Made by a program: the position numbers and the translations under genes
In this document: positions 6,860 through 61,449 of the stretch, one piece after another
Layout of the letters: the number at the start of each line of letters is the position of its first letter
Numbering within the stretch: the stretch's first letter is position 1
Assembly: GCF_056746865.1 (NCBI RefSeq)
Contig: NZ_JBWKMP010000003.1
DNA from: a plasmid
Direction: 5' to 3' (one strand)
Length of the DNA stretch: 64,000 nucleotides
Notes under the pieces: generated by a model
The model's database searches: none
What the model was told of the DNA's origin: nothing
What the model saw: only the letters and a program-made list of their open reading frames with translations

Positions 6860-7510
6860 ATGAATAACATGCCAACGAAAGAGCTTTTTAAGTTCCTTCC
6901 CAAATACAAAGCTCACAAAAACGTTAGTGCATCGAAAATTAAAAATGTTGTTATTTTCGGAGTAACTGATGCCCCACTTTGGGGCTGCATCGAACTCGTT
7001 GAACCAAAAGGGGCAACAGTTTGTGTTGACGCAATGTTTTTACAAAAACACCGACCAAAAACTGGCGGGTATCTGATCGTTTATGAAAACGGTTATCTGT
7101 TCTATGCCCCGGAGAAACCATTTGAGGAATGCTATGGCCTGGTTAACGACGCCTCCAAAAATGGAACCACGGTCATCATTACGGATGACAACGGCGTGAT
7201 GATTAATCTTACTGGGAGCGTAACTATTTCTGCTGGTGGCATCACCACCCAGCAAGAAGAAATCGACCTTGAAGCAGCCGACTTCTCTGATGCGCTAATG
7301 TGGTTGAAGGAAGGCAAGAAAGTTGCCCGACGCGAGTGGAAAGGCGAAAAGCAATTCTGCTGGTTAGTTCTCGCTGGAAGCGTCAATTTACACGGCATTC
7401 ACGTTCCTTATGGTGACCATTTTGTATTGAAAGATGCACAAAATATGGACAGCGTTTGGTTGCCGTCTGTGGATGATTTACTGGCCTGTGACTGGTTTGT
7501 TGTGGAGTGA
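6860..7510 (+). CDS. fusion protein: unknown N-terminal domain plus C-terminal DUF2829 (Tad2-like) domain
   Basis: C-terminal ~75 aa (FSDALMWLKEGKKVARREWKG...WLPSVDDLLACDWFVVE) matches the DUF2829 pattern as recalled; GAGGAAAGG Shine-Dalgarno. Confidence 0.55.
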   Translation: MNNMPTKELFKFLPKYKAHKNVSASKIKNVVIFGVTDAPLWGCIELVEPKGATVCVDAMFLQKHRPKTGGYLIVYENGYLFYAPEKPFEECYGLVNDASKNGTTVIITDDNGVMINLTGSVTISAGGITTQQEEIDLEAADFSDALMWLKEGKKVARREWKGEKQFCWLVLAGSVNLHGIHVPYGDHFVLKDAQNMDSVWLPSVDDLLACDWFVVE

Positions 7511-7516
7511 TTTAAC

Positions 7517-8323
7517 GTGGAAAATACCAAGAACATTCAATATCGCTTGCGTAACGGCCTGCTGGTGGATGTAAACGATGATATGTCCCTGCCCTTTGCC
7601 ACCATTGAGCGAACCATCCTTACATACCTGGGCTTAGACGAAGAGTTAGATAGTGAGAATGGCATTGCTATCTGGCGTGACGGAAAAACGGGAGTCAGAC
7701 GTTTTATTACGGCAAGAGGCATTCAGTGCACACAGGAAGAATTGTTTGAACTGGCGCAGTCTTATGGATGCATCGCGTTAGATCCCCTGTATGACCCAGC
7801 CATAGCACAACAACTCATTCGAGAGCTGTCGCTTTCGGTCACGCCAATAATCTTCCGCCAGGGAACCTTAACCGGCACATGGCGTGTAGAACGCATCTCT
7901 AAATATCAGCCATATAATATCCATTTGAACGGCACTATTACTGGTGTGGATCAACCAGTAGCAGGTGAAAACAAAGACCTGGAACTTGCAGTAATGATGG
8001 CAGCTTGTCGCGTGCTTGGCCTGGGCAAGCAGATGTTTATCCATTTCCCAAACGGCGCGGAAGGCGAAGTAGAGCTGATTTCCTGCGACTTTTCCTTAAC
8101 CTGGATGCTTGATGAATTCCTGGACAAAACAGTATTCCGTGCTGAAGAACTGGATATGTATGTCACCTCAAGTATTCCTAATGACGTGAAAGTTGAGGCC
8201 ATCGCTACAGCCAGGGCGAAATGCCGTGCGGCGATTGCAGAACAGGCCAAAGAAGAACAGTCCGATGAAGTCGCGGCAGATGTGGAGGCAGAGGTAGCGG
8301 AGGATGCTGATGCTGACGCCTAA
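7517..8323 (+). CDS. hypothetical protein with acidic C-terminal tail
   Basis: GTG start with GGAG Shine-Dalgarno; 268 aa; ends in an Asp/Glu/Ala-rich tail. Confidence 0.45.
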   Translation: MENTKNIQYRLRNGLLVDVNDDMSLPFATIERTILTYLGLDEELDSENGIAIWRDGKTGVRRFITARGIQCTQEELFELAQSYGCIALDPLYDPAIAQQLIRELSLSVTPIIFRQGTLTGTWRVERISKYQPYNIHLNGTITGVDQPVAGENKDLELAVMMAACRVLGLGKQMFIHFPNGAEGEVELISCDFSLTWMLDEFLDKTVFRAEELDMYVTSSIPNDVKVEAIATARAKCRAAIAEQAKEEQSDEVAADVEAEVAEDADADA

Positions 8324-9410
8324 AAACATCACCGAATTACCAGAGTGGAGAGAGCTGGTAAGCAAATATAGCCATGACTGGGCATTAGCAGCAGAAGAGT
8401 TGATGGGTGTTAAGTTAACCCACCAGCAAAAGCTAATTGTTGAGGCGATTCAACAAAAAGGTTCAGCAGTCAGCGTCACCACTCCTGAAGGGATAGGCCA
8501 AAAGACGGTTATCGCTATAATTAGTATTCTTTATACAATCCTGATGCCTGAGTCTAAAACGGTTATTGTTTCCCCAAAGTTCTATAATTGTCGCAGGCAA
8601 GTTATCCAATACATAAGTACGTATTGGGATAGAGTCAGTAACAGAATCCCATTGCTGGGAGAATATTTTAAAGTCGACGGAAACGGCATCAATCATCGTT
8701 ACCGGGAATATTGGGGCTGCGAAATTAAGCCATATCACCGAAATTATGAGGAAGGTTTCGGTGGATATTATGCTGAACATCTTTTAATCATTGTTACGGA
8801 GGCGGCTCTTGCTGGCGATCGGCTATTCAGCATGTTAAGAGCATCGTTAGTAAGTGACGATTCACGTATACTTTTAATGTCCGCTCCTTCAGAGGAGGAG
8901 CATGGACACTTTTACGATTCCCATCATGGTCGTGCAAAATCAGAAGAAAATCCATGTGGTATTTATACAGCCATCAAGCTGAACGCAGAAGATACCCCCA
9001 TTATTTCACAAGGTTATCTTGATAACATTGCAGAAATATATGGTGGTAAAAACAGCGATTACTACCGTCGCATGATTCTTGGTGAGTTTCCAGGTATTAG
9101 GGAGGCTGTTCTTGAATCAGATATGCCGAAAACAATGCGCTTTTCGATGCCTGATGGTAGTGAATGGATAATGCCATTACGAGTGATAGCCCGGCATCAT
9201 GCACAGCACCACGCCAAAAAACATGGCGTTACAACATTGGAGTGGTTGAAATCGCACACCATTCCACTCTTCACTGCAGATCACAATGCTATCGTTGAGT
9301 GGGCAAAAACAATTCCGTGGGAGAATGTCGCTGAATACGCCCACATGCTAAAACCGCCGAAAGACAGGCAAGAAATTAGCTGGCTGACAGCAGAAAAAAT
9401 CATTGAGTGA
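8304..9410 (+). CDS. terminase-large-subunit ATPase-domain paralog with degenerate Walker motifs
   Basis: Clear similarity to the 1460-2968 ATPase domain (THQQKLIVEAIQ.. vs SHQQQQIIQSVQ..; FYDSHHGRAKSEENP vs FYESHHSRAKAEGNP), but Walker A reads TTPEGIGQKT and Walker B IVTEAA; no nuclease-domain counterpart. Confidence 0.6.
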   Translation: MLMLTPKNITELPEWRELVSKYSHDWALAAEELMGVKLTHQQKLIVEAIQQKGSAVSVTTPEGIGQKTVIAIISILYTILMPESKTVIVSPKFYNCRRQVIQYISTYWDRVSNRIPLLGEYFKVDGNGINHRYREYWGCEIKPYHRNYEEGFGGYYAEHLLIIVTEAALAGDRLFSMLRASLVSDDSRILLMSAPSEEEHGHFYDSHHGRAKSEENPCGIYTAIKLNAEDTPIISQGYLDNIAEIYGGKNSDYYRRMILGEFPGIREAVLESDMPKTMRFSMPDGSEWIMPLRVIARHHAQHHAKKHGVTTLEWLKSHTIPLFTADHNAIVEWAKTIPWENVAEYAHMLKPPKDRQEISWLTAEKIIE

Positions 9411-34249: not shown

Positions 34250-35230
34250 ATGTCCCAGGAGCTACAGCAATACTTTCTACAGTCCGTTACCATCAACGGA
34301 AACAAAGTACCCAGGGAGTGGATATTCACTGCCGTATATGTGGAAAAGGCAAACCTGCGTGCACCATTGCTGAAACTGGAAATTCACGACATTACCGGCA
34401 CCATAATTGATGACTGGAAAACAAAATACGGCGCAGCACTGGTTGCAGAGATGGGAGATCCACAAGGCAATTCAGGCACGTTTAAAACAACTTTTTTCGT
34501 AACATCTGCGGTGCTGGCTGGTGATGTCATCACGGTCATTGCAGTCAGTGAAGACGTTCGGATATTTAAGATCCCCGCCATACGGGCTAACCTGCATACA
34601 AATAAAACGCCTGATACCATTTTCAAGACGTATACCGGTACACTGAAAATCGCCTCCAGCGCATTGAAACGAAGCTGTACGTACCATCTTTCCGCCGGGG
34701 AAAAACCCTCCAAAATGCTATCTGAAATGGCCCGCGATAAAGGCGCTTTATGCTGGGCCTGCCGTGGTCAGTTTAACTTTTATACATTAGCTGACCTTAT
34801 GAAAGCCAAACCATCATTCACCTATGAAGGGAACAACCCCAGGGCGGAATACACGATTTCAAAAATGAGGCTTATACAGCAAGAGTATGCCGTTACGGCA
34901 AATACTCAGTATCGATTTACCGGCTATTCAATGACTGAAGGCTATGTCGAATATGGCGATAGCTCACTTCCAATACGCTATATATCCGATCCGGATATGG
35001 AAACTCTGCGCAATATGCAATTGTCGCTCGTACCCAAAATGGATATTGAGGTCGCGGGTAATCCCGACATCACGCCGGGAATGGTTATTGAGATCCTCGT
35101 GTATCGTTACGACCAGGAAAATAAGCTGGACGAATCGTTGCCTCGTAAGCTGTTGGTGAAAAACGTAGCCCATTTTGAGGACCGGATCGGCTATACAACA
35201 CGAATGATATTAGGAGTACCCAACCAGTGA
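34250..35230 (+). CDS. hypothetical protein (virion module)
   Basis: 326 aa; tightly packed with its neighbours. Confidence 0.45.
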   Translation: MSQELQQYFLQSVTINGNKVPREWIFTAVYVEKANLRAPLLKLEIHDITGTIIDDWKTKYGAALVAEMGDPQGNSGTFKTTFFVTSAVLAGDVITVIAVSEDVRIFKIPAIRANLHTNKTPDTIFKTYTGTLKIASSALKRSCTYHLSAGEKPSKMLSEMARDKGALCWACRGQFNFYTLADLMKAKPSFTYEGNNPRAEYTISKMRLIQQEYAVTANTQYRFTGYSMTEGYVEYGDSSLPIRYISDPDMETLRNMQLSLVPKMDIEVAGNPDITPGMVIEILVYRYDQENKLDESLPRKLLVKNVAHFEDRIGYTTRMILGVPNQ

Positions 35231-35904
35231 AACGCAGAGCGCAAATCGTAGGGACCAAACACCCTGCCGGACTTATGCGAGCGCAGGTCCGCATACTGCC
35301 TGACTGGAACGGTGTACCGGATGAAGACCTCCCATGGGCAGAGTATCAAATGCCTATCGGTAACGCCTTTACACCTACAGTCAGCGGCGATTTAGTCTGG
35401 GTCGAATTTCCTTATCTGGATGCTAAAGGCAGGATAGACACGCGCCGACCTTTAATCGTTGGCGCGGCGCAGGATGCCCCAGGAGGCGTACCAAATGTGC
35501 CTCCGGAAGCCTCCGGACAAGGAAACGGATGGTCGCCAGAAGAAGTTGATGGTGCTCCTGCCCGCCCCCAGTTTTCGGCGACTGAAGATTTTGTTATTCA
35601 CCGAAACAATATCCTTGAGGTCAGAACGGCTGGCGGTGGCTATGAAATAGCAAACACCGCCGCAGGATCAAGGATAGGGATGAACGAATCCGGCCAGATT
35701 TACATAATCGGCCCGGCGAATATAGTGCTTAATGCTGGAGGTGAGGTTAACGTCAAATCAAGCAGCAAAACCAATGTATCCTCAGATGGAGACGTTAATG
35801 TAAAAGGCAGCAATGTAACCGTCGCCGCTGATGGTGATATAGCCCTGAAAGCTGGTGGCGCGCTAAAAGCAACAGCGAGCAATTTCTCCTTTGTGAAGGG
35901 ATAG
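35227..35904 (+). CDS. putative baseplate spike (gpV-like)
   Basis: GTG start overlapping the upstream stop; C-terminal beta-helix-like repeats (NVKSSSKTNVSSDGDVNVKGSNVTVAADGDIALKAGGALKA). Confidence 0.35.
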   Translation: MKRRAQIVGTKHPAGLMRAQVRILPDWNGVPDEDLPWAEYQMPIGNAFTPTVSGDLVWVEFPYLDAKGRIDTRRPLIVGAAQDAPGGVPNVPPEASGQGNGWSPEEVDGAPARPQFSATEDFVIHRNNILEVRTAGGGYEIANTAAGSRIGMNESGQIYIIGPANIVLNAGGEVNVKSSSKTNVSSDGDVNVKGSNVTVAADGDIALKAGGALKATASNFSFVKG

Positions 35905-39914: not shown

Positions 39915-40202
39915 TCATTTTGTATCCTCAGACTCTGCAAGCATGAGGATAGCATGGCGGATCATATTCAATTTGCTGCGATTATGCTTTTTGCTTAACG
40001 CATCAAGTACCTGGTACTCGTATTCATTGAAGCCAACACGAATGGATTTAAAATCACGTGGGGCGTCCTTATCGAGCACTTTGTTGTCTTCTGGTTGCTC
40101 ACCCGGCACCAAATCAGCTTTGCTGGCAAAAGCCTCAATTCGGCGTTCAAGATCGAGGTCTTTTACTTCGGGGGCTTTTACCGATTTACGAGGCTTAATC
40201 AC
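39915..40202 (-). CDS. ParG-like small partition protein
   Basis: 95 aa, directly downstream of and overlapping the ParA-like ATPase gene. Confidence 0.45.
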   Translation of the reverse strand: MIKPRKSVKAPEVKDLDLERRIEAFASKADLVPGEQPEDNKVLDKDAPRDFKSIRVGFNEYEYQVLDALSKKHNRSKLNMIRHAILMLAESEDTK

Positions 40203-40836
40203 TTAATAACTCCTTAACCAACATCTGGATTTCACCTTTAGCTTTCCCGTTGTCCATCTCAACAACGCCCTTCCCTTCAGCCATACAATCGCGGTAAACC
40301 TTGCGATCGCGAATGATGGTTTTCAGCAACTTCAGTTGCGGATATTCAGCCAGGTACTCTTTGGCCTCATTGGCTTCATTCACAACCGGATTGGATGGGG
40401 CCATTGTTAAAACTGCGCACGCCTTAATGCTAGGATTAGGCATCAGATCCAAAGCCTCTTCAAAGACTTCAACAAAATGCGCCAGCGTGTCTAAATCTGG
40501 CTGAGATGGCCTGAATGGAACAAGCAAAACATCCGCCGCAGTAATACCGGTGCGCATCTCTTTGCTATCACGACCAGCGGTATCAACAACCACAAATTCA
40601 TAACGCTTGTCCAGATCAAGAAGTGTTTCACGAATATTCCCAAACTTCTGGACGCAATGAATTACTGGAGAAACCTCTGCCGCATTACGGTCCGATGCCC
40701 AACGGGCAGATGTTCCTTGCTTATCTGCATCAAGTAGAACTACGTCCTTATTTGCGCGGGCAAGCTCCGCACAAATGTTTACGCTGGTGGTTGATTTGCC
40801 ACAGCCACCTTTTTGGCTGGCTACCAATATAATCAT
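40195..40836 (-). CDS. ParA/ParF-type partition ATPase
   Basis: Deviant Walker A SQKGGCGKSTT; 213 aa, small-ParA size. Confidence 0.7.
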   Translation of the reverse strand: MIILVASQKGGCGKSTTSVNICAELARANKDVVLLDADKQGTSARWASDRNAAEVSPVIHCVQKFGNIRETLLDLDKRYEFVVVDTAGRDSKEMRTGITAADVLLVPFRPSQPDLDTLAHFVEVFEEALDLMPNPSIKACAVLTMAPSNPVVNEANEAKEYLAEYPQLKLLKTIIRDRKVYRDCMAEGKGVVEMDNGKAKGEIQMLVKELLSD

Positions 40837-40992
40837 ATCCGTCCCTCGGTGTTATTTTGGTATCAAAATGGCTCCAAACAGAAGCCTTATTGATGCGGTT
40901 TTGGCTCTATAGTGGAGTCACTATGCTTTGCAAAAGTATAACACTAAACACTCGAAATTTGCCCTCTGTTGCATCCTGTTTAACACGAAGTC

Positions 40993-41055
40993 AGCCTCAA
41001 AGTGGAACCAGACACAAAACAGCACCACAACAACACCGTTTTGGTACTAAAAGAG
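40993..41055. repeat. repeat block flanking the ParA/ParG-like operon (right copy)
   Basis: AGCCTCAAAGTGGAACCAGACACAAAACAGCACC and CAACACCGTTTTGGTACTAAAAG; related to 39837-39903. Confidence 0.45.
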
Positions 41056-41121
41056 CACCAAATTAGAACCATAACAGTATAAAAAAGGCTGCAAATTGCA
41101 GCCTTTGAAGATGTAGATTTG

Positions 41122-41487
41122 TTAATCAGGGAGTGAGTTTGCCAAATTCTGTGCAGAGCGGCTTTTCGAAACGCCAGGTTTTTTAACATCCGCTGAGGCT
41201 GAGGGGTTTCCTTCAGGGTTTTCCCGAACTTCAGGCGAAATTTCAAGAAATGAAACCAGCATTTTTCTGATCACTTCAGGGCTATTATCACCGGATAAAA
41301 GCGATGCCAACATGGGAGGTAATCTGCTATCAACCTCGCCAAGAGCGATACCTGCAAGCATCGCTGTGCGCGCCATATCATTGCGATCTCTTAATGGATG
41401 GCCCTCAAGTTTTGCATCAGCATATTGCTCACTGGCGTTAAGACCAGGACGAAGATAAAACAATACTTTTCGACGTTCCTGAGACAT
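41122..41487 (-). CDS. parR: ParR-like centromere-binding protein
   Basis: RRKVLFYLRP...RNDMARTAMLAGIAL parallels R1 ParR; immediately downstream of parM. Confidence 0.6.
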   Translation of the reverse strand: MSQERRKVLFYLRPGLNASEQYADAKLEGHPLRDRNDMARTAMLAGIALGEVDSRLPPMLASLLSGDNSPEVIRKMLVSFLEISPEVRENPEGNPSASADVKKPGVSKSRSAQNLANSLPD

Positions 41488-41497
41488 GGCAACCTCA

Positions 41498-42454
41498 TCA
41501 ACCGATAGATTTTAGACCATAGACAAGAGCAAGTTGTGGATCATCAGCAACGAAAAACCTATCGTCACGAATGTTTACCTGCTCACGGATAGCATCAGCA
41601 ACAAGCGGCGCGCCGCCACCAATGACCATAACATGCGTGTATCCTTTGAAATCACTGATCACATCCAGTACGCGTGTACGGAGTCGTTCTATGCTTGACG
41701 AAATGGCTTTCTTAACATCATCAATAGCAGACGGATCGTTAATATTGTCGGTCAAATAATCCTCATCATCACGATTAATGATTAATTGATCGACATTATA
41801 ATTAGAGGTTTCGGTATTCGCTTTTGCAAGTGCCTGTCTGACCTCTTTAGTTACCAGCGAAACGCCGAGATTAGAATCGCCAAATACGCGAGAAACGGCG
41901 GTCATTTGCCCGGCGACCATCGACACATCCAGAGTAGTCCCACCAAGATCAACAATAAGCACAGAATGCGCTGGCACAAGGCTGTCGCACAGACCGATCC
42001 CTGCGGGTATTGACTCCGGGCGCACAGTCACTTTTTTGATAGTAAAAACCTGACCTTTGTTAAGGGTGACTGGTCGCATCAGGCTGGCCTTTTTCCGCTC
42101 AATATTTTTCATGTTGTATTGTGCGTCGTCGTCATAAAACTCTGCCAGTGGCAACGTGACAACTATTTCCACTTCTTGAGGCTCAATGCCACTTGTAAGC
42201 AGGGCATGATGAACAGCAAGCACATTAAGCGGGCTGTATTGCCATTCAACGTTATTCGTCGGCAGCACATCCGGCGAGATCAAGTCATATGAATATTTTT
42301 CGTCATCAATGATGTAGTTAAACGGCTTTCCTGCGCCAAATGTGGCGGACCATCCACGTTTAAAACTGTTCGGACAGATATGGGTTCGAGTTTCCCCGTC
42401 TTGTTCCCACAGCATTTTGATATTGGTAGAACCATCGTCGATAAAAATGCGCAT
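41498..42454 (-). CDS. parM: ParM (StbA) actin-like partition ATPase
   Basis: MRIFIDDGSTNIK..HICPNSFKR..AVHHALLTSG..IVDLGGTTLD..YTHVMVIGGGA is colinear with R1 ParM; start at the second ATG. Confidence 0.85.
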   Translation of the reverse strand: MRIFIDDGSTNIKMLWEQDGETRTHICPNSFKRGWSATFGAGKPFNYIIDDEKYSYDLISPDVLPTNNVEWQYSPLNVLAVHHALLTSGIEPQEVEIVVTLPLAEFYDDDAQYNMKNIERKKASLMRPVTLNKGQVFTIKKVTVRPESIPAGIGLCDSLVPAHSVLIVDLGGTTLDVSMVAGQMTAVSRVFGDSNLGVSLVTKEVRQALAKANTETSNYNVDQLIINRDDEDYLTDNINDPSAIDDVKKAISSSIERLRTRVLDVISDFKGYTHVMVIGGGAPLVADAIREQVNIRDDRFFVADDPQLALVYGLKSIG

Positions 42455-42555
42455 CATATTGCTCCACTTCTGAGACACATTTGAGAAAGAATTGAATTTT
42501 ATATGAGAAAACAAAATAAGACCAGAAGTTAGATAGCGTAAAAAGCATCAAACAA

Positions 42556-42644
42556 GAGACGTAAGAGAGACGCAAAAGAGACTTAGATGATACATGATGT
42601 ACCCACGATACCCGTTTGAGACAAATCAGAGACAAATGTGAGAA
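42556..42644. repeat. parC-like centromere iterons
   Basis: GAGAC / GAGAA cores at 42556, 42567, 42578 and 42618, 42629, 42640 with 11-bp phasing; two triplets flank a ~35-bp core upstream of parM. Confidence 0.5.
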
Positions 42645-42706
42645 GTAAGAAATCTGAAGAGTGAAAATCACAAAGTGGAGAAGATTTAAGAAAAAGGAGG
42701 TGTTAG

Positions 42707-42991
42707 ATGAGTGCAATAGCGACCAGTGACACAGTTTGTTCTGGTCATGGAGGATTCCCTCCGCGACCTGTAGCAGAAACAGTTTCCTGGTTTACCGTAA
42801 ATGGAAAGCCAGTGGTTGTAGATGGGGGAGCGTTCCCCAGCCATACAGACGGAAATAGCGCGCACCCCGGATCAGCCGTATCGACGCGCTCATGGTTTGC
42901 AATAGGCGGGAAAGGAGTTGTTTGTGTGGGAGATCCCCTTTCTTGTGGCTCAGTCATCGCCAATGGTGAGGCAATTTTTCAGGTGTCATAA
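42707..42991 (+). CDS. PAAR-domain spike-tip protein
   Basis: 94 aa; PAAR-like pattern (CSGHGGFPP...VNGKPVVVDG...GDPLSCGS); strong AAAAAGGAGG Shine-Dalgarno. Confidence 0.55.
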   Translation: MSAIATSDTVCSGHGGFPPRPVAETVSWFTVNGKPVVVDGGAFPSHTDGNSAHPGSAVSTRSWFAIGGKGVVCVGDPLSCGSVIANGEAIFQVS

Positions 42992-43785
42992 TGCTTGATT
43001 CAATCGCTGAAGTTAATGCATTCAAAATTCTAAATGCATCAGGCACAACTACGCCTGCATCTATCACGCTAAGTAAAACAGCGTCATCCAATGCCAGTTC
43101 TCTGGAAGAGAATATCCAGGCTCTTATCCTGAAGGATAAAGCATACCCGGCGTCGGTGGTTTCATGGGTCAATCAGCTTTCTGTCTTTTCAGAACAACTG
43201 AAAACTGTCAGTGCAGAAGCAACCAATTTAGCCGACTCGCTGTCTCCGTATACTTCGCCAACTGAATTACTTCAGATGAAAATTGGCTGGGAATGTTACG
43301 TCAAAGGTAATGAGTTATCTCCTGCGCCAGAATTTGCTCTCGTAACAGTTATGGGAGATACCCTGCATCCGCAATCGCTTATTGACGCGTTGGCAGCATT
43401 TGAACTGGTGCCAATCACTTCAGCCATGACCGCTATAAATGCAAAAGTTCAGGCGTCAAGCGGGGAGGCTTCAGGCAACGGAAGTTCCACCGGAACAACA
43501 CAGCAACCAGCACTAACAGAAGAAGAGATCAAAGCACTAAAAGACGCTGTGGAAGCAGCAACAGAACAAATAAATGCAATAAACAACACGAGCAGTAGTC
43601 TCTCAACACTTGTACAGCAAGTTAAGGACTCTACCGGAAAAGCCAAACAGGGACTGGAGAATGCTGTAGCTATTACGTTAACCGGTTCTCTACTGGGCGA
43701 TGAAGTAATGAGTCCGGCAATCAGTTTGATCATGCCACAAGGTGTGATCGATGCGCTCCAAAACAACACTAAAAAGGAACCATAA
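42991..43785 (+). CDS. hypothetical protein
   Basis: 264 aa; ATG overlaps the PAAR stop. Confidence 0.45.
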   Translation: MLDSIAEVNAFKILNASGTTTPASITLSKTASSNASSLEENIQALILKDKAYPASVVSWVNQLSVFSEQLKTVSAEATNLADSLSPYTSPTELLQMKIGWECYVKGNELSPAPEFALVTVMGDTLHPQSLIDALAAFELVPITSAMTAINAKVQASSGEASGNGSSTGTTQQPALTEEEIKALKDAVEAATEQINAINNTSSSLSTLVQQVKDSTGKAKQGLENAVAITLTGSLLGDEVMSPAISLIMPQGVIDALQNNTKKEP

Positions 43786-43855
43786 CCACACCATTTAAGC
43801 CCATAAATGGTTACAAATTGGTACACATATCACACCAACAAAAAATCTGAAGAGG

Positions 43856-44314
43856 ATGGTTTTGAAAAAGATAATTTTGATAGTAGTTGCGCTTTTAGCC
43901 ATTTATGGAATTTACCGTACTACGGCGGCAGTTATCGATCACATCAGGTATATCCGTTCCCTGGAAGACTCAAAATCACAACTTGAAAGCGAGAACAACA
44001 CGCTTTCTACCGCATTGCAGTTAAGTGAAAAATCGCGATCTGCCATGATGGCTGAAAACGAAAGAATTAAAACACTGGAGAAGGAGTACCAGCGCAAAAC
44101 AGCAGAACTGAATACCAGCCTGATCAAACAACGGGAGGAAAGCCAGAATGAAATCAATCGTCTTGAAACTGCGTTACGCAATGCCGGGGTTAATGATGTG
44201 CGTGTGCCTGATGACGTTATCAGGATGCAGCGGGAACGGGCAAAAGAAATCAATCAGCGTGCCAATGCAAATTACCGTAGAAGCCACCAGCAAACCGCAG
44301 GGAAATCTGATTGA
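43856..44314 (+). CDS. Rz-like inner-membrane spanin candidate
   Basis: N-terminal transmembrane helix followed by coiled-coil-rich sequence. Confidence 0.45.
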   Translation: MVLKKIILIVVALLAIYGIYRTTAAVIDHIRYIRSLEDSKSQLESENNTLSTALQLSEKSRSAMMAENERIKTLEKEYQRKTAELNTSLIKQREESQNEINRLETALRNAGVNDVRVPDDVIRMQRERAKEINQRANANYRRSHQQTAGKSD

Positions 44315-44528
44315 TTATACCCCTTGCATAGTGCCAGAGGACACGCCTGTGCTGTTAAACAAGTATCCGGCATACACTGAACAGTTATTCAGCACTATCG
44401 ATGAATGCAACCAACGAAACGCACTGAATAACCAAAGGAATAGGGAGATTTGGGAAGGGAAGGGGGTTAAGGCTCCTGAAGCCAGATGTCCTGGCTGTCA
44501 GCTTCTTCGAAACCGTGACAGACGTTAA
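44148..44528 (+). CDS. Rz1-like outer-membrane lipoprotein spanin candidate
   Basis: Starts inside the Rz-like gene in another frame; lipobox LSGC. Caveat: its 3' end overlaps a convergent ORF by about 60 bp. Confidence 0.35.
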   Translation: MKSIVLKLRYAMPGLMMCVCLMTLSGCSGNGQKKSISVPMQITVEATSKPQGNLIDYTPCIVPEDTPVLLNKYPAYTEQLFSTIDECNQRNALNNQRNREIWEGKGVKAPEARCPGCQLLRNRDRR

Positions 44529-44949
44529 AGTCACTCAAGCGATACTGGCGCTGACGGCCTCTATTTCGCTCATGCCAATGCATATATCCACCAGCAAATG
44601 CCAGCGGACAATCGCTATAGTCGATGTAGCCAATACCATTACCCAAACGCGCTTCGCGCGCCCCGGCTTTCCAGGACAGCAGAAAAGAGTCACGATCTGC
44701 CAGCATGACTACAAAATCATCCAGATCGCCTATGCAGTGAAGAATGCCTGCCTTGCATAACTGTTTGAGTGCCTTGGACTGACTCAGGATGTCTTCACCG
44801 TAATACTGAAAACAATCATCAACAATAGCGGGATAGCCAGCGGGTGGATTCAGGCTGGTTGGTATAGCTGACGCGATAGCCAGCATTAAACGATATTGTG
44901 TTTTCGATGGGTTCGCGTGACTCATGTTTCCTCTACTCACTGTCTCCAT
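44467..44949 (-). CDS. hypothetical protein
   Basis: 160-aa ORF, second gene of a leftward pair. Confidence 0.4.
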   Translation of the reverse strand: METVSRGNMSHANPSKTQYRLMLAIASAIPTSLNPPAGYPAIVDDCFQYYGEDILSQSKALKQLCKAGILHCIGDLDDFVVMLADRDSFLLSWKAGAREARLGNGIGYIDYSDCPLAFAGGYMHWHERNRGRQRQYRLSDFNVCHGFEEADSQDIWLQEP

Positions 44950-45411: not shown

Positions 45412-45488
45412 ATTGACTAAATAACAAAGTGAGTATTGTCACCTCGTCAAAAGAATCTTCACGCCGCGCCCGAATTTAGGGTTTAACC

Positions 45489-47186
45489 GTGAACAAGAAC
45501 ATTGAGCCAGCTCGTAAGCGCGAGCGCGAGATTATGAATCGGGCGGCAAGCGTCATGGCTATGACCGTCGATCCAACCACTGATGCTGCCGGTAACATGA
45601 TTACCGACAACGAAGTGATGATGGCTAACCTGGAAAAAGCTATCCAGAAAGAGCCAATGTTTGAAGGCGTTGGACCAGAAGCAGCTCGCCAGATCATTGG
45701 TAGCTGGGCCATGTCTATTCATGAATACAAACGCCAGCATGGGCATTATCCGGCAAGCGATGTATTAGCCAACGCCCATGTAGCACTTGAGCGCCTGATG
45801 ATGGAGTCCGCTAAAGAGACGCATGAAGGCGCTGGCAAAGCCATGTTTGAATCAGTAGCCAAGGACATGCGCACCTCCGATGGTGTAATGAAGGTTGCAC
45901 AATATGCCGCACTGATCCTGCCTGCTTCTCTCGGCGCAGCCACCAGCGACGCATGTACGTTTATCCCTTGTGATCGTGATGAAACCAATATTTACGAGCT
46001 GACCAACGTTGCTGGTACAAAATTCGGTACATTCGAGCAGGGCGATGAACTGAACATGCAGTCTGCTGGCGTGTATTCGCAGATGAAACGCCTGTACATC
46101 CTGACCGAAAAAGGCGATGGCAGCAAAACCACCTTCCAGTTTGATATCCAGAACTTCGAAGGCCAGGCCTGCCCGCTGCGCCAGGGCTACAACAAACTGC
46201 TGATTAACCGCAAACCGTCCAAAGTAGATGATGGTGACGGCAACCTGTATTTCAACGACAAAGACGTCAACGGCAACTCTTTCTCTGCTACAGCAAAAGT
46301 TAAATACGATACCGGCGTTATCGATATCACCTTTAATGAAGCACCAGCAGAAGGCACAGAAATCGCTGTTCAGGTTGAAATCAACATTGAACGCAATCCG
46401 AGCCTGATACCAGTCATTAACCAGTCCATGCGCAATTACGCCCTGCGCCCGTCGCAGTACGTGATCGCATCCGAACATACGGTTATGACAGCATCTGACC
46501 TGAGCCGTGAACACGGACTCGAACTGGCAGCATTGCAATTCTCCGCAATGCGCAACTGGATTTCCCACGAAATCGATATGATGCGCCTGCGCACTCTGGT
46601 ATTCCACACAGTTTACGGTCGTGAATTTGATGTGGCACTGCCAGAAGCGCAGAACTACGAATCGTGGGTTGGTTTAATTCGCCATGTAGTGAACGCGCTG
46701 TCACAGGACATGGCTGACCGCACCCTGACTACCGGTATCCGTGGTGGCTTTGCTGGTGGCGATGCTGCTAACTTCCTGCGTTCCTTACCGCCGCAGCACT
46801 TCCAGTTGGCACCGGGCTATGTACAGTCGCCGTACATTCAATACATCGGCACCCTGTTTGGTTCCATTCGTATCTACGAAGTGCCGAAGCCTATCTGCAA
46901 ACAATTCCAGGAACATGGCTACGACTTTGGCCTGGACGACATCTACTTCTATGGTCGTGGCGAAGGCATTGGTAAAGCTGGCCTGGTCGCTGGTGATGCT
47001 GTGCCTGCTATTCCGTATGTCCACGAAACAAATCCAGCCCTGGTAAACCGCACCACTCTTTGGGGTACAGCAATCAACGATGTGCATCCGCGCAACGGTG
47101 AGAACTATTTCACTCGCCTTCGCCTGACACGTTCGAAAGAAGGTGCGATTGACATGTTGAGCGGGCAAATCAACGAAAAAAAGTAG
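45489..47186 (+). CDS. putative major head protein
   Basis: 565 aa; GTG start; first gene of the late structural block. Size and position fit P1 gp23, but no motif evidence. Confidence 0.4.
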   Translation: MNKNIEPARKREREIMNRAASVMAMTVDPTTDAAGNMITDNEVMMANLEKAIQKEPMFEGVGPEAARQIIGSWAMSIHEYKRQHGHYPASDVLANAHVALERLMMESAKETHEGAGKAMFESVAKDMRTSDGVMKVAQYAALILPASLGAATSDACTFIPCDRDETNIYELTNVAGTKFGTFEQGDELNMQSAGVYSQMKRLYILTEKGDGSKTTFQFDIQNFEGQACPLRQGYNKLLINRKPSKVDDGDGNLYFNDKDVNGNSFSATAKVKYDTGVIDITFNEAPAEGTEIAVQVEINIERNPSLIPVINQSMRNYALRPSQYVIASEHTVMTASDLSREHGLELAALQFSAMRNWISHEIDMMRLRTLVFHTVYGREFDVALPEAQNYESWVGLIRHVVNALSQDMADRTLTTGIRGGFAGGDAANFLRSLPPQHFQLAPGYVQSPYIQYIGTLFGSIRIYEVPKPICKQFQEHGYDFGLDDIYFYGRGEGIGKAGLVAGDAVPAIPYVHETNPALVNRTTLWGTAINDVHPRNGENYFTRLRLTRSKEGAIDMLSGQINEKK

Positions 47187-52619: not shown

Positions 52620-52910
52620 TGAGGGCAATATCTACACCTGCTGTTTACGTCAATGATGGCATTTTTTACACATCACAACAAAATCAACGCGTTACAACCA
52701 TAAAACATTCAACAGTAGTGCGATAAAAATAGCTATAGCATACGATGCCATCTGAGGGTGATTTTTACACATTCCTTATTAATCAATAAATTACAAATAA
52801 TGTTAGCCGTTAAAGATCCAACCAACTAACTAATGATGTAAGAATTGCCCTCAATCTCCCATCTTTAAGGGCAAATCCTACACCTACAGAGAGGTGTAGA
52901 AATTGCCCTT
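52620..52910. repeat. incA-like iteron cluster downstream of repA
   Basis: About five ~21-bp copies in both orientations, for example TTGAGGGCAATATCTACACCT (52620) and TAAGGGCAAATCCTACACCT (52868). Confidence 0.5.
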
Positions 52911-53664
52911 AAGACTGCTGATAGGTGAATTTTATTTTTGTAACTCTGCCACCTTCTGTAACCTCTGAGAAAACTATTTTCATTTTTGTGTTTTTTTCGA
53001 TTTCAGCTACAGCTTTTGCCAGAAAGCTTCTCTTAAATTCGGCGTACCGTTGATAGCTTTTGGGAAGACCATAACGCTCCCGCATCCATTCAACGCCAAG
53101 TATAGCGAAGCCGCTCCCATCATCCTTTCTATACTGGCATAAGGACTCATAAAGCCGCATAGAATAAGGGTTTGTCAGGCGAGACACTTCAGTAAAATTC
53201 AGCCTCGTGAACCTCTTATCAAGCAGAGTAAAAAACGGCATGAGATATGGATTCAGATGAATAATGTAAGTCCCCCGGCGTGGTGAGTAAGCCTCCTTAA
53301 TCATCCAGGGATAAGACTCATAACTGTCTTCTGATTCGGTTGATTCATCAGGGTTATATATCGTGACTTTCTTCTCACTAAGTCCGGAGATAGCTTTACG
53401 AATATCCTTGCTGGCTTCAGCAGAGGGCAAATTATACATCTCTGCATATTCGTTGACCGTCAACTCACAGGCACCTGAACCAAGAACGCCATCCTTAGAA
53501 GCATAGCGAAGTCTTCCCACCACAATAAACAACAGTCGCTTTTGGTCGCGTGTCAGGTGATAAGCCGCCTCTGTGATCTCATTGGCCTGCGCCAAGCTAC
53601 GGCTAATTGGTGTCGCTGATTCAATCAGACTGACGGCTTTTGCCGTTAATTCCGCTCTGTTCAT
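52909..53664 (-). CDS. repA: RepA-type plasmid replication initiator (start uncertain)
   Basis: Call is contextual: no sequence motif was checked; sits between two iteron clusters with a DnaA box and AT-rich tract upstream. About 250 aa from ATG 53664. Confidence 0.55.
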   Translation of the reverse strand: MNRAELTAKAVSLIESATPISRSLAQANEITEAAYHLTRDQKRLLFIVVGRLRYASKDGVLGSGACELTVNEYAEMYNLPSAEASKDIRKAISGLSEKKVTIYNPDESTESEDSYESYPWMIKEAYSPRRGTYIIHLNPYLMPFFTLLDKRFTRLNFTEVSRLTNPYSMRLYESLCQYRKDDGSGFAILGVEWMRERYGLPKSYQRYAEFKRSFLAKAVAEIEKNTKMKIVFSEVTEGGRVTKIKFTYQQS

Positions 53665-53688
53665 AACCCTGTGTGATCCTTCAAATGG

Positions 53689-53807
53689 TGAGGGCAATTT
53701 TTACATCACTTTGAGGGCAATTACTACACCTTTTGAGGGCAAATCTTACACCTGCTGAGGGCAAATCTTACACCTCAATAGCTTAATTGAGGGCAAATCT
53801 TACACCT
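53689..53807. repeat. origin iterons (incC-like): five direct ~21-bp repeats
   Basis: TGAGGGCAA(A/T)T(C/T)TTACACCT at about 53689, 53711, 53733, 53755 and 53787. Confidence 0.55.
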
Positions 53808-53839
53808 TGGTCCTCTACAAGCCCCGCCACCCCTGGCCT

Positions 53840-58795: not shown

Positions 58796-59170
58796 ATGCT
58801 TTATGAGATTGATGCCCGCCTTCAGACAAACGAGAGCGGGGTGGTGATCGCTGAAGGCGACACAAACGCCTGGATAGCCCGACTCGATGAATGGCTACGG
58901 ACACCAAATGGCAGCGTTTACGGATTTCCGTCATGGGGGAATCCGATGGAGGAGTTCAAACACGAACCCTTCGGTTCTGATACGTCACACATTGTTGAAG
59001 TGGCGATTGAAGCGCGAATGATGACGAAGCTACAGCAGGACTTACCAGGGCTTGGACTCCAGGCGATCCGCTGCGCGACTGTCTCTGAAGACCAGTTACT
59101 AATTAGCTTCCAGGCAAAAGGAGGCACCGTGAATGTTGTTATGCAGAAAGATAGCGGAGATACAGCGTGA
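58796..59170 (+). CDS. putative baseplate protein (gpW/gp25-like by position)
   Basis: 124 aa; stop overlaps the next gene. Confidence 0.3.
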   Translation: MLYEIDARLQTNESGVVIAEGDTNAWIARLDEWLRTPNGSVYGFPSWGNPMEEFKHEPFGSDTSHIVEVAIEARMMTKLQQDLPGLGLQAIRCATVSEDQLLISFQAKGGTVNVVMQKDSGDTA

Positions 59171-60597
59171 GTATTACCGAATTACTGGACAAGTTTAATG
59201 CCAAGCTGAACGAAAACCCCTGGTGGGCGCGATTTGTAAACAGCCAGTTTATTCAAATGCAGTCCGTTTTGGGCGCGCAGATTGTTTATATTGCGCGTAC
59301 ATTTGCAAGCCGTGCACTTACAGAAGGATTCATTTCCACCGCGACGCGTAGAGCAAGTATTCTCGCGGCAGCGGAAGACCGTGGCTATGTCGGTCGTTTG
59401 GTCGATGCGTCATACGGCACTGTTTCCATCACCAACAAAACCGACAGGGATATTACTCTACCCGGAGGGGCTGAATTACTGACAAGTGACCAGACACCAA
59501 TTGCAACCAGCAGTAGTGTTGTTATCCCTGCTGGTGAAACAGTACCCGGCATAGAAGTAAAACAGCATGAAGCAGTCAGCGTAACGTTCGACGTGGTGCA
59601 AGAAACACCATTCTTGACGCTGTTACTTTCCCGTGAGTTAACAGCAGAAGTCGCCAGCCTGGAAGTTGTCGTGATAACTAATGGTGTCGAGGAAAAATGG
59701 ACACATAACCCCCTGTTCCGCATGTCCAGGGATAACAGTAAACATTATGTGTTGGTTTATAAGCCGACAGAACAGATCGGCGTGCGCTTCGGTGATGGAT
59801 CAATGGGGATGATGCCAGCGGCAGGGAGTCAGGTACGCATTGATATTATGGCAAGCCTCGGTGATTACACGCTGGCTGAAGGCCAGAAACTTGAACCAGC
59901 AGGGAACATCTCCGGGTATGTCGAATCACTGGAAGTAAAAACCGATTCGATCATTTCTGGCGGTGGTGGCATGGAAACTACCGAGGAAACCCGAAACAGG
60001 GCGCAGTATTATGTGGCCTACGATGAGCAGGTTGTTTGGGGCGGTGATTACCGCCAGTTCATTCAGAACGTGGTCAGTGGCACGTCATGGCTTAACGTGT
60101 GGGGGGAGGCGCTACAGGAGAAAATCACGGGCTTTGATGTGCGTAATATCAACAAAATTTTCTTTTGTGGGCACAAGCCCGGCGTAACACAGGAAGCTCT
60201 GAAAACAGAGATATTATCAGCCCTTGAGAGTATCCCTAATGAGCTGAATAAGAAGTTCGAATACGTCGCCACCAATGAACAGCCGTTCAACATCAAATTT
60301 ACCGGTATCGTAAAAAAGAGTGTGCTGGTGGATGACGCGCTAACTGCAATTAAAGCGGCACTGGAGGAGAACTTCGGTAAAGACTCCATGTCATTTAGCC
60401 AGCTATTGCAGAGTGATGACGATTCACAGCAATGTTATGCACAGGTCAAAGTAAAAGATATCTGGCGAGTAATCGAATCGCTGGATATGTTCCTGTCTTA
60501 TGACGTGGCTACGCAGAACATGAAAGAAGCTGTGTACTTTAATGATTTTGTTTATCTGGACGTGGAATCATCAACGTTCAGCATAACCTATCCGTAA
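59167..60597 (+). CDS. putative baseplate J-like protein
   Basis: 476 aa; GTG start overlapping the upstream stop; placement between W-like and tail-fibre genes. Confidence 0.35.
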   Translation: MSITELLDKFNAKLNENPWWARFVNSQFIQMQSVLGAQIVYIARTFASRALTEGFISTATRRASILAAAEDRGYVGRLVDASYGTVSITNKTDRDITLPGGAELLTSDQTPIATSSSVVIPAGETVPGIEVKQHEAVSVTFDVVQETPFLTLLLSRELTAEVASLEVVVITNGVEEKWTHNPLFRMSRDNSKHYVLVYKPTEQIGVRFGDGSMGMMPAAGSQVRIDIMASLGDYTLAEGQKLEPAGNISGYVESLEVKTDSIISGGGGMETTEETRNRAQYYVAYDEQVVWGGDYRQFIQNVVSGTSWLNVWGEALQEKITGFDVRNINKIFFCGHKPGVTQEALKTEILSALESIPNELNKKFEYVATNEQPFNIKFTGIVKKSVLVDDALTAIKAALEENFGKDSMSFSQLLQSDDDSQQCYAQVKVKDIWRVIESLDMFLSYDVATQNMKEAVYFNDFVYLDVESSTFSITYP

Positions 60598-60606
60598 GAG
60601 GTCACA

Positions 60607-61449
60607 ATGCAGAATAACTGGCTAAAAGAGCGTCTGACGCAATTTAAACAGGATTCTAAATTGTGGGCCGCCTTTGTTGATACGATTCAGGACGTGTGGA
60701 ATGAATCGGTTGAACCTATTCTCACGCGAATAAGCAACCGTAAATCGTTTTTCACAATGGCAAGGGAGGATATGGACACTCGCATTGCTGAATATGGTCG
60801 TTTCTTTGTTATCACAGAAACGGACAAAACACGCAGGCCAATGCTATTAGCTCAACGACTGGATGAGGTGCACTTCAAAGGAACAGTAAGGCCGATAGAG
60901 CAAACGTTCTGGCGTGAATTTGGCACAATCCCCGTCTCATGGGAACCTTTGTATGCGCCTGTCGATACAGAAAAACATCCCTATGGTTCATTCTTCGCGA
61001 CCGCAAATGAAATACCGACCGCTCAGGCACAATATGGTGAGTTTTTCCTGACATCCAGAGGGCTGGTTGTCGTCAACCAAAATAAGCTGTATCGAGCTTA
61101 TGATAGCGATGACCGAGACGTTGCTGTACAGAAGCTACTTGCTGATTTTGATACGGTTATAGCGCCGCTATTGCCATTGCATATCGTGTTTGATGGTGTT
61201 TCTTTCCAGTTAAGCGCAACATTGCCGGAAATGGCGGAGATCCTGAATTGCTTATCTGCGGAAGTGTCCTTTATTGAGGGGGTGTACACGACGCAAGAGA
61301 TGGTCGATGAGCTATCTATTAGCGATACGATCATTCAAATAGGCGGCATCCAGTTCGCAGGAAGGCCAGACCGGACGACGGAAAGAGTGCTTCATCTCGA
61401 TGAACTCCCGCTCGACGCCTGGGCGCTGGATTATAATTTTGCACCTTAG
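60607..61449 (+). CDS. putative tail protein
   Basis: 280-aa ORF. Confidence 0.35.
   Translation: MQNNWLKERLTQFKQDSKLWAAFVDTIQDVWNESVEPILTRISNRKSFFTMAREDMDTRIAEYGRFFVITETDKTRRPMLLAQRLDEVHFKGTVRPIEQTFWREFGTIPVSWEPLYAPVDTEKHPYGSFFATANEIPTAQAQYGEFFLTSRGLVVVNQNKLYRAYDSDDRDVAVQKLLADFDTVIAPLLPLHIVFDGVSFQLSATLPEMAEILNCLSAEVSFIEGVYTTQEMVDELSISDTIIQIGGIQFAGRPDRTTERVLHLDELPLDAWALDYNFAP

Follow-up and report, generated by a model that had tools for sequence, protein, structure and literature searches.

The closest described counterparts of the gene considered here are UpfC of phage P1, orf57 of phage D6 and gp5.4 of phage T4. P1 UpfC was linked to T4 gp5.4 by HHpred, its deletion had no effect on plaquing, and the protein was undetected by LC-MS/MS (PMC9024508), presumably owing to its single copy in each virion. 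In two cryo-EM studies, the trimeric gp5 needle of P1 is capped by a UpfC monomer (bioRxiv 10.1101/2025.07.21.665459; PMC12810830), with UpfB forming three trimeric 'tripods' anchored to the spike tip (PMC12810830), and both upfC and upfB were found by CRISPRi to be non-essential (PMC10695390). T4 gp5.4 is a monomer that caps the trimeric gp5 beta-helix and is dispensable for plaques. It has a 3-His/1-Cys metal site, and its H14A mutant fails to bind gp5 (PMC12407873). The same T4 spike-tip paper points out that a tip gene need not come after the spike gene, and proposes the lack of His-x-His near the C-terminus as the criterion by which to recognise spikes that depend on a separate tip protein (PMC12407873). 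Phage D6, a myovirus related to P1, has a plasmid prophage; its orf57 (YP_009914734.1) is annotated 'similar to P1 gene upfC' and its orf56 'similar to P1 gene upfB', and StbA/StbB partition genes adjoin them.

The window analysed here is a stretch of 64,000 nucleotides of a plasmid (contig NZ_JBWKMP010000003.1 of RefSeq assembly GCF_056746865.1). At 42707-42991 it encodes a member of this group, next to a parC-like plasmid centromere. We consider it very probable that the gene provides the virion spike tip of a D6-like phage-plasmid and that its parC neighbour is incidental. The locus is made up of the following features.

40195-40836, minus strand: ParA-like Walker ATPase, a second, type Ib-like partition gene (Pfam AAA_31 / MipZ / CbiA; D6 orf60)
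41122-41487, minus strand: ParR / StbB centromere-binding adaptor (Pfam Plasmid_stab_B, 3.1e-14; PHROG_8671)
41498-42457, minus strand: ParM actin-like partition ATPase (Pfam StbA_N, 2.1e-69; ParM C-terminal, 8.9e-56)
42458-42706, unstranded: parC-like centromere and divergent control region, 249 bp, with 11-bp GAGA iteron clusters at 42472-42515, 42556-42588 and 42618-42650
42694-42701, plus strand: Shine-Dalgarno sequence AAGGAGGT, perfect, with a 5-nt spacer to the PAAR ATG (read from the sequence)
42707-42991, plus strand: PAAR protein of 94 aa, predicted spike tip; orthologue of P1 UpfC and D6 orf57, homologue of T4 gp5.4 (Pfam, PHROG, PDB, AF2, Foldseek)
42991-43785, plus strand: UpfB homologue, 264 aa (tblastn, 59% to D6 orf56 and 32% to P1 UpfB; PHROG_1559, 3e-101)
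43856-44314, plus strand: Rz-like i-spanin, 152 aa, P1 ppfA counterpart by position and function (PHROG_214 / 89)
44181-44528, plus strand: overlapping o-spanin candidate with lipobox LSGC, P1 mlp counterpart, exact start uncertain (ORF translation; tblastn)

The initial annotation had taken the ORF at 42707 for a PAAR spike-tip gene, and its PAAR identity is fully supported by profile, by homology to solved structures and by fold, so that the refuting outcome named there, a lack of the PAAR fold, did not occur. The protein matches Pfam PF05488 (PAAR_motif; 30.0 bits, E 6.2e-07, gathering cut-off 27) and PHROG_281 'PAAR motif' (E 1.7e-28). Its best match among PDB sequences is P1 UpfC (9vyi chain A; E 6.2e-36, residues 1-94 on 1-94, 57% identity), followed by T4 gp5.4 (5iv5, 4ku0; E about 1e-6) and the T6SS PAAR protein VCA0105 (4jiv_D; 1.6e-4). 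An AlphaFold2 model built from an alignment of 40 homologues (mean pLDDT 95, pTM 0.85) predicts the PAAR fold, a cone of three beta-hairpins with pseudo-threefold symmetry. In a Foldseek search of the PDB with this model, PAAR tips alone occupied the top matches: P1 9vyi (TM 0.96, rmsd 0.8 A), Klebsiella phage baseplate 9f4b (0.93) and T4 gp5.4 4ku0_D (0.93), with VCA0105 4jiv_D (0.88), c1882 4jiw_D (0.86) and phiKZ gp163.1 (0.62) lower down. Seven residues (G13, H14, H46, H53, D76, C80 and G81) are invariant in the 40-homologue alignment, which includes P1 UpfC and T4 gp5.4. Judging from this alignment, H14, H46, H53 and C80 are the likely equivalents of the tetrahedral 3-His/1-Cys metal site of T4 gp5.4, and a metal ion held by them would pin the apex of the three-hairpin cone.

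PHROG_281 has the category label 'moron, auxiliary metabolic gene and host takeover', a homologue goes by the name 'Zn-binding protein involved in type VI secretion' in one JGI source, and the fold resembles that of VCA0105 and c1882 (4jiv, 4jiw; TM 0.86-0.88), to which the protein is likened in its PAAR cone, metal-stabilised apex and VgrG / gp5-type beta-helix binding. On these grounds the gene could be a moron that supplies a T6SS-type PAAR cap to the type VI secretion system of the host, a reading that we regard as almost certainly wrong. VCA0105 and c1882 belong to a bacterial secretion system and not to a virion, and T6SS PAARs often carry effector domains, whereas the protein encoded here is a bare 94-aa PAAR without effector extension. 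By far its closest solved relative is the virion-borne P1 UpfC; its gene is translationally coupled to that of the tail protein UpfB, a phage spike gp5 is present, and the whole D6 annotation holds no T6SS genes. Around the gene, VgrG, Hcp and sheath context of the T6SS kind was absent, the neighbours being phage and plasmid genes.

Placement in the P1 UpfC orthologous group follows from equal length (94 aa each), similarity over the full length, a upfB homologue directly downstream and a P1-like genome. As in P1, a spanin pair comes after upfB, gp5 is encoded elsewhere and the host element is a plasmid prophage. The flanks differ: P1 has a divergent uhr-hrdC-dmt group upstream and a plasmid module (type Ia) downstream of upfA, whereas the window has type II ParMR/parC upstream, and repA, downstream of upfA in P1, lies inside the tail block of the window (52909-53697). 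D6 orf57 encodes an 88% identical protein, and D6 shares both the order parR-parM-parC-PAAR-upfB-spanin-...-gene 23 and membership in a family of phage-plasmids of about 90 kb in E. coli and Salmonella; its parC spacer and UpfB (59%) are considerably diverged, and glnS, upstream of par in D6, is absent from the window element. T4 gp5.4 is alike in size, fold (TM 0.93) and 3-His/1-Cys site, and the protein of the window, known from sequence and model, is likened to it at about 30% identity. T4 gp5 has a lysozyme domain, in contrast to P1-type gp5; the T4 tip carries no UpfB-like tripod, and in T4 gene 5 and the tip gene are near neighbours.

By these likenesses, the protein would sit, as a PAAR-repeat monomer, at the tip of the central spike in the contractile tail of a myovirus that is D6-like (P1-related) and lives as a plasmid prophage. 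It would cap the blunt end of the trimeric gp5 beta-helix, sharpening the membrane-piercing tip, and would carry the UpfB 'tripod' encoded by the coupled next gene; the virion location, the contacts with gp5 and UpfB, the timing of expression and the dispensability of the protein are what we infer here. The translation of the gp5 homologue shows no HxH motif near its C-terminus. PAAR and UpfB stay paired in all eight loci compared (8/8), and the UpfB homologues align end to end. No meaningful match to the UpfB homologue was found among PDB sequences, consistent with P1 UpfB being unbuilt in deposited models (PMC12810830). The UpfB homologue diverges much faster than PAAR (59% vs. 88% identity to D6, 32% vs. 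57% to P1) and is most variable in a central Gly/Ser-rich stretch; its surface may be under host-range selection.

In tblastn searches of the window, P1 PpfA gave no match and P1 Mlp a weak one (E 2.7e-5, 44190-44450). The o-spanin candidate begins inside the i-spanin gene, in another frame. The spanin pair holds the ppfA/mlp place of P1, away from holin genes, which in D6 are elsewhere (lydA/lydB). PAAR, UpfB and the spanins are probably expressed as a small operon, and the PAAR protein is likely to be dispensable for laboratory plaque formation, as in P1 and T4.

The PAAR ORF is intact, running from an ATG to a TAA stop over 94 codons of sense. The strong Shine-Dalgarno sequence claimed for it is there, a perfect AAGGAGGT placed 5 nt before the ATG. 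The TAA stop overlaps the ATG of the upfB homologue (TAATG at 42989-42993), and the two genes are therefore translationally coupled. Relative to its D6 orthologue, the ORF has 7, 5 and 45 nucleotide differences at codon positions 1, 2 and 3, and is therefore coding and under purifying selection. RefSeq leaves it unannotated in both of the near-identical plasmids checked (NZ_LR890273.1, 75953-76488, and NZ_CP085065.1), where a gap of 536 bp, corresponding to window 42458-42991, separates parM from the upfB homologue. The missing CDS, together with a truncated homologue in a sibling element (P0037), had prompted the idea of a pseudogene, which was rejected, the ORF being intact and identical in both plasmids and under purifying selection. 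More broadly, a decaying or non-functional remnant might be suspected from the missing CDS, from the frameshifted (P0037) and internally deleted (P0019) variants among the homologues and from the non-essentiality of P1 upfC. We hold this to be exceedingly unlikely, given that both plasmids encode the identical protein from an intact ORF, that the third-position bias relative to D6 is strong, that the Shine-Dalgarno sequence is perfect, and that all four putative metal ligands are invariant in a protein modelled at pLDDT 95.

The P0037 variant (94,156-bp contig) is a 65-aa frameshifted version broken at a G5 homopolymer that corresponds to window 42833-42837, and P0019, from another element, is a 69-aa version with an in-frame internal deletion; these are either sequencing errors or cases of occasional loss of a dispensable tip gene. 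A collection of 5.8 billion protein clusters contained no exact copy of the PAAR protein (best match 90%), probably because RefSeq leaves the gene unannotated. Several GenBank, nr and UniRef records name the family 'alanine racemase' (homologues P0002, P0023, P0029, P0033 and P0035; plasmids CP057742.1 and CP058021.1), which looks like a propagated annotation error.

The remaining structural genes of the window fall into blocks, which are listed with the individual genes discussed here and the replication initiator.

29.8-31.4 kb: block gp26-gp25
32.7-35.9 kb: block gp7-24-6-5
34250-35227, plus strand: gp6 baseplate hub homologue (83% to D6 gp6)
35227-35904, plus strand: gp5 central spike, predicted docking partner of the PAAR tip (78% to D6 gp5; PDB 9vzk_q P1 Gp5, E 1.3e-53)
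42.7-43.8 kb: block PAAR-UpfB
45.5-52.6 kb: block capsid-sheath-21-pmgG-tube-pmgC-tub
45489-47186, plus strand: major capsid protein, P1 gene 23 homologue, the start of the capsid-sheath-tube block (PHROG_1014, 1.6e-215; D6 annotation)
52909-53697, minus strand: plasmid replication initiator repA (98% to D6 orf42)
54.0-62.0 kb: block pmgB-sit-pmgA-bplA-16-R
58796-61449, plus strand: baseplate wedge genes pmgA, bplA and gp16 (76-83% to the D6 homologues; D6 annotation)

P1/D6 homologues were identified in the window for gp5, 6, 7, 16, 24, 25, 26, pmgA and bplA, and genes 22 and 23 through D6-syntenic annotation and the ORF map. Pfam gave nothing above threshold for gp5, gp6, pmgA and gp16, so that their identity rests on D6/P1 homology and PDB 9vzk. 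The baseplate candidates that the initial annotation had placed at 58.8-61.4 kb are real, being the pmgA, bplA and gp16 homologues. Its suggestion of a split or rearranged structural cluster holds in its first half: baseplate genes lie in at least four blocks. The second half does not stand. The block layout is that of D6, and P1 likewise scatters its baseplate genes; since P1-like phages normally scatter tail and baseplate genes, the split is a trait of the family and not a local rearrangement, and PAAR has not moved. Lying 2.5 kb upstream of the capsid-sheath-tube block, the PAAR gene is therefore not isolated from structural genes. The repA gene, with four iterons of roughly 20 bp (TGAGGGCAAATCTTACACCT) just upstream of it (window 52909-53810), lies within the tail-gene block, flanked by tub and pmgB and well removed from the partition genes.

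In plasmid R1, parC consists of 11-bp iterons upstream of parM, arranged in two blocks of five, and also holds the par promoter. The window resembles R1 parMRC in having a ParM ATPase and a ParR adaptor, encoded in one operon, with clustered and phased 11-bp iterons upstream of parM. It differs in iteron sequence (GAGA core), in iteron number and in showing three clusters instead of two blocks of five. The 249-bp spacer between parM and PAAR contains 11 GAGA cores where 0.77 would be expected from the density in the window, in three clusters that each keep an 11-bp register (42472/42483/42505, 42556/42567/42578 and 42618/42629/42640), and its lag-11 autocorrelation is 0.41, compared with 0.30 +/- 0.03 in shuffles (p = 0.001). 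The D6 spacer has a GAGA / 11-bp pattern as well. On sequence grounds, the interval 42458-42706 has the architecture of a type II parC centromere.

A second partition-like pair stands beside ParMR (window 39915-41121), in which a 95-aa ORF without Pfam match (39915-40202, minus strand) overlaps the ParA-like gene. The 286-bp spacer between the ParA-like gene and parR contains three copies of a 24-nt repeat, TTTTGGTAYnAAAAnnGCnCCAAA, which may be the centromere or operator of this pair. The pair is missing from one relative with ParMR (locus L009 below), and in another (L008) a toxin-antitoxin pair is found instead.

Synteny was compared with relatives at several distances. Across the 4.5 kb around PAAR, identity is 99.9% with E. 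coli plasmid NZ_LR890273.1 and 98-99.6% with six further plasmids (about 90-94 kb; E. coli or E. marmotae), and about 84% with phage D6 and with over 100 D6-like plasmids found in E. coli, Salmonella and Shigella. Of 5426 complete E. coli genomes, 100 carry the parC-PAAR segment, on plasmids every time, and the parM-parC-PAAR layout of the window is common to D6 and about 120 plasmids. What precedes PAAR in the window, in the named phages and in five further loci (L007 to L011) is as follows.

Window and D6: ParA-like gene and small ORF, then ParR-ParM, PAAR
L008: toxin-antitoxin pair, then ParR-ParM, PAAR (the contig ends before the upstream genes, so that the ParMR-to-capsid stretch alone is visible)
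L009: ParR-ParM between methyltransferase and PAAR
L007 (76% identical PAAR, 88-kb contig): gp7-24-6-5, RdgC and two methyltransferases, PAAR 62 nt on, without par genes
L010: RdgC / methyltransferase, then PAAR, without par genes
L011: RdgC and one further, unassigned ORF, then PAAR, without par genes
P1: divergent uhr-hrdC-dmt with C1 operator upstream of upfC; oriR-repA-parA-parB-parS downstream of upfA, before gene 23

In all relatives examined, PAAR follows gp5...hrdC-dmt and precedes the capsid gene (in L008, for the ParMR-to-capsid part only), and is thus in its family position. The ParMR/parC cassette is present in the window, D6, L008 and L009, and absent in L007, L010 and L011. With the place of PAAR-UpfB fixed and the par cassette absent in three relatives, the partition cassette is therefore the variable piece. 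Together with the ParA-like pair, it would form a variable module at the hrdC-dmt / upfC junction of the D6-like lineage. Maintenance modules unrelated to one another occur on either flank or on neither, and the adjacency of PAAR and centromere is thus best read as incidental. In L007, the UpfB homologue is closely followed by an inserted IS605-type OrfB / TnpB (Cas12f-like) gene (7303-8388), which likewise indicates that insertions are tolerated on the flanks of the small operon.

A sigma-70 scan of 42300-44700 detected nothing resembling a promoter, and its terminator-like sites were as frequent as chance predicts. As a candidate P1-type late promoter, the 9-bp -22 box AAGTNACTT, taken from annotated LP23, gave nothing convincing upstream of PAAR; its sole exact match in the window lies upstream of gene 26 (29720), and its counts are at chance (21 vs. 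23.8 expected). Copies of the derived motifs ACAAAGTG and AAGTGNNNATTGTNAC precede PAAR, gene 23 or gene 7, yet without enrichment, and these motifs are no more than a lead. In the window, D6, L008 and L009, a box AAAT[AC]ACAAA stands between the iterons and the Shine-Dalgarno sequence, at a distance of about 35 nt from the ATG. Boxes of this type show no statistical enrichment within the window; the box may be a lineage-specific late-promoter element. Sites of the form AAAT[AC]ACAAAGTG are found in the window at 42667-42679 (PAAR) and 45419-45431 (capsid gene 23) and in the D6 locus (L001) at 7218-7232, and a near-identical AAATAACAAAGTG lies upstream of gene 23.

The proximity of the two units invites the question of whether they are coupled. 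The initial annotation had put the ORF some 60 bp beyond the parC iterons, in good agreement with the 56 nt that separate the end of the last clear iteron (42650) from the start codon. It is conceivable that the ParR-parC complex acts beyond its autorepression of the parMR promoter, silencing or insulating the divergent PAAR-UpfB-spanin operon in lysogeny, or else supplying the promoter of that operon. The distance of just 56 nt is in keeping with such coupling, as is the lack of an independent sigma-70-like promoter in the scan; moreover, the head-to-head arrangement of parM and PAAR is kept in every par-positive relative seen (D6, L008, L009 and about 120 plasmids), and a leaky spanin operon would harm. 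As no promoter of the PAAR operon was found, ParR at parC could still influence it. However, relatives without any par cassette hold PAAR-UpfB in the same place, and in P1 the site is taken by a C1 operator and the dmt promoter, which argues against any requirement for ParR. The AAAT[AC]ACAAA box in the par-positive loci suggests that the operon has a signal of its own, and common descent of a recent lineage explains the conserved adjacency equally well. We therefore hold such coupling to be improbable, and its narrower form, in which the parC-ParR complex would also serve during lysogeny to silence or insulate the divergent operon, to be very improbable. If true, the plasmid segregation machinery of D6-like phage-plasmids would be physically coupled to control of the tail-tip/lysis operon.

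A spike-tip gene with an incidental parC neighbour accordingly remains the preferred reading. What is new here is confined to minor annotation points, the rest being known biology, and the practical value lies in annotation, with little for new biology: the missing CDS and the 'alanine racemase' misnaming could mislead automated classification of D6-like elements. For the family, the analysis confirms that D6-like phage-plasmids have the PAAR tip and UpfB tripod module recently visualised on the P1 spike, and that the borders of the small operon host different maintenance modules, ParMR being placed upstream in D6-like elements and oriR-repA-parAB downstream in P1, with three metagenomic relatives lacking any such module.
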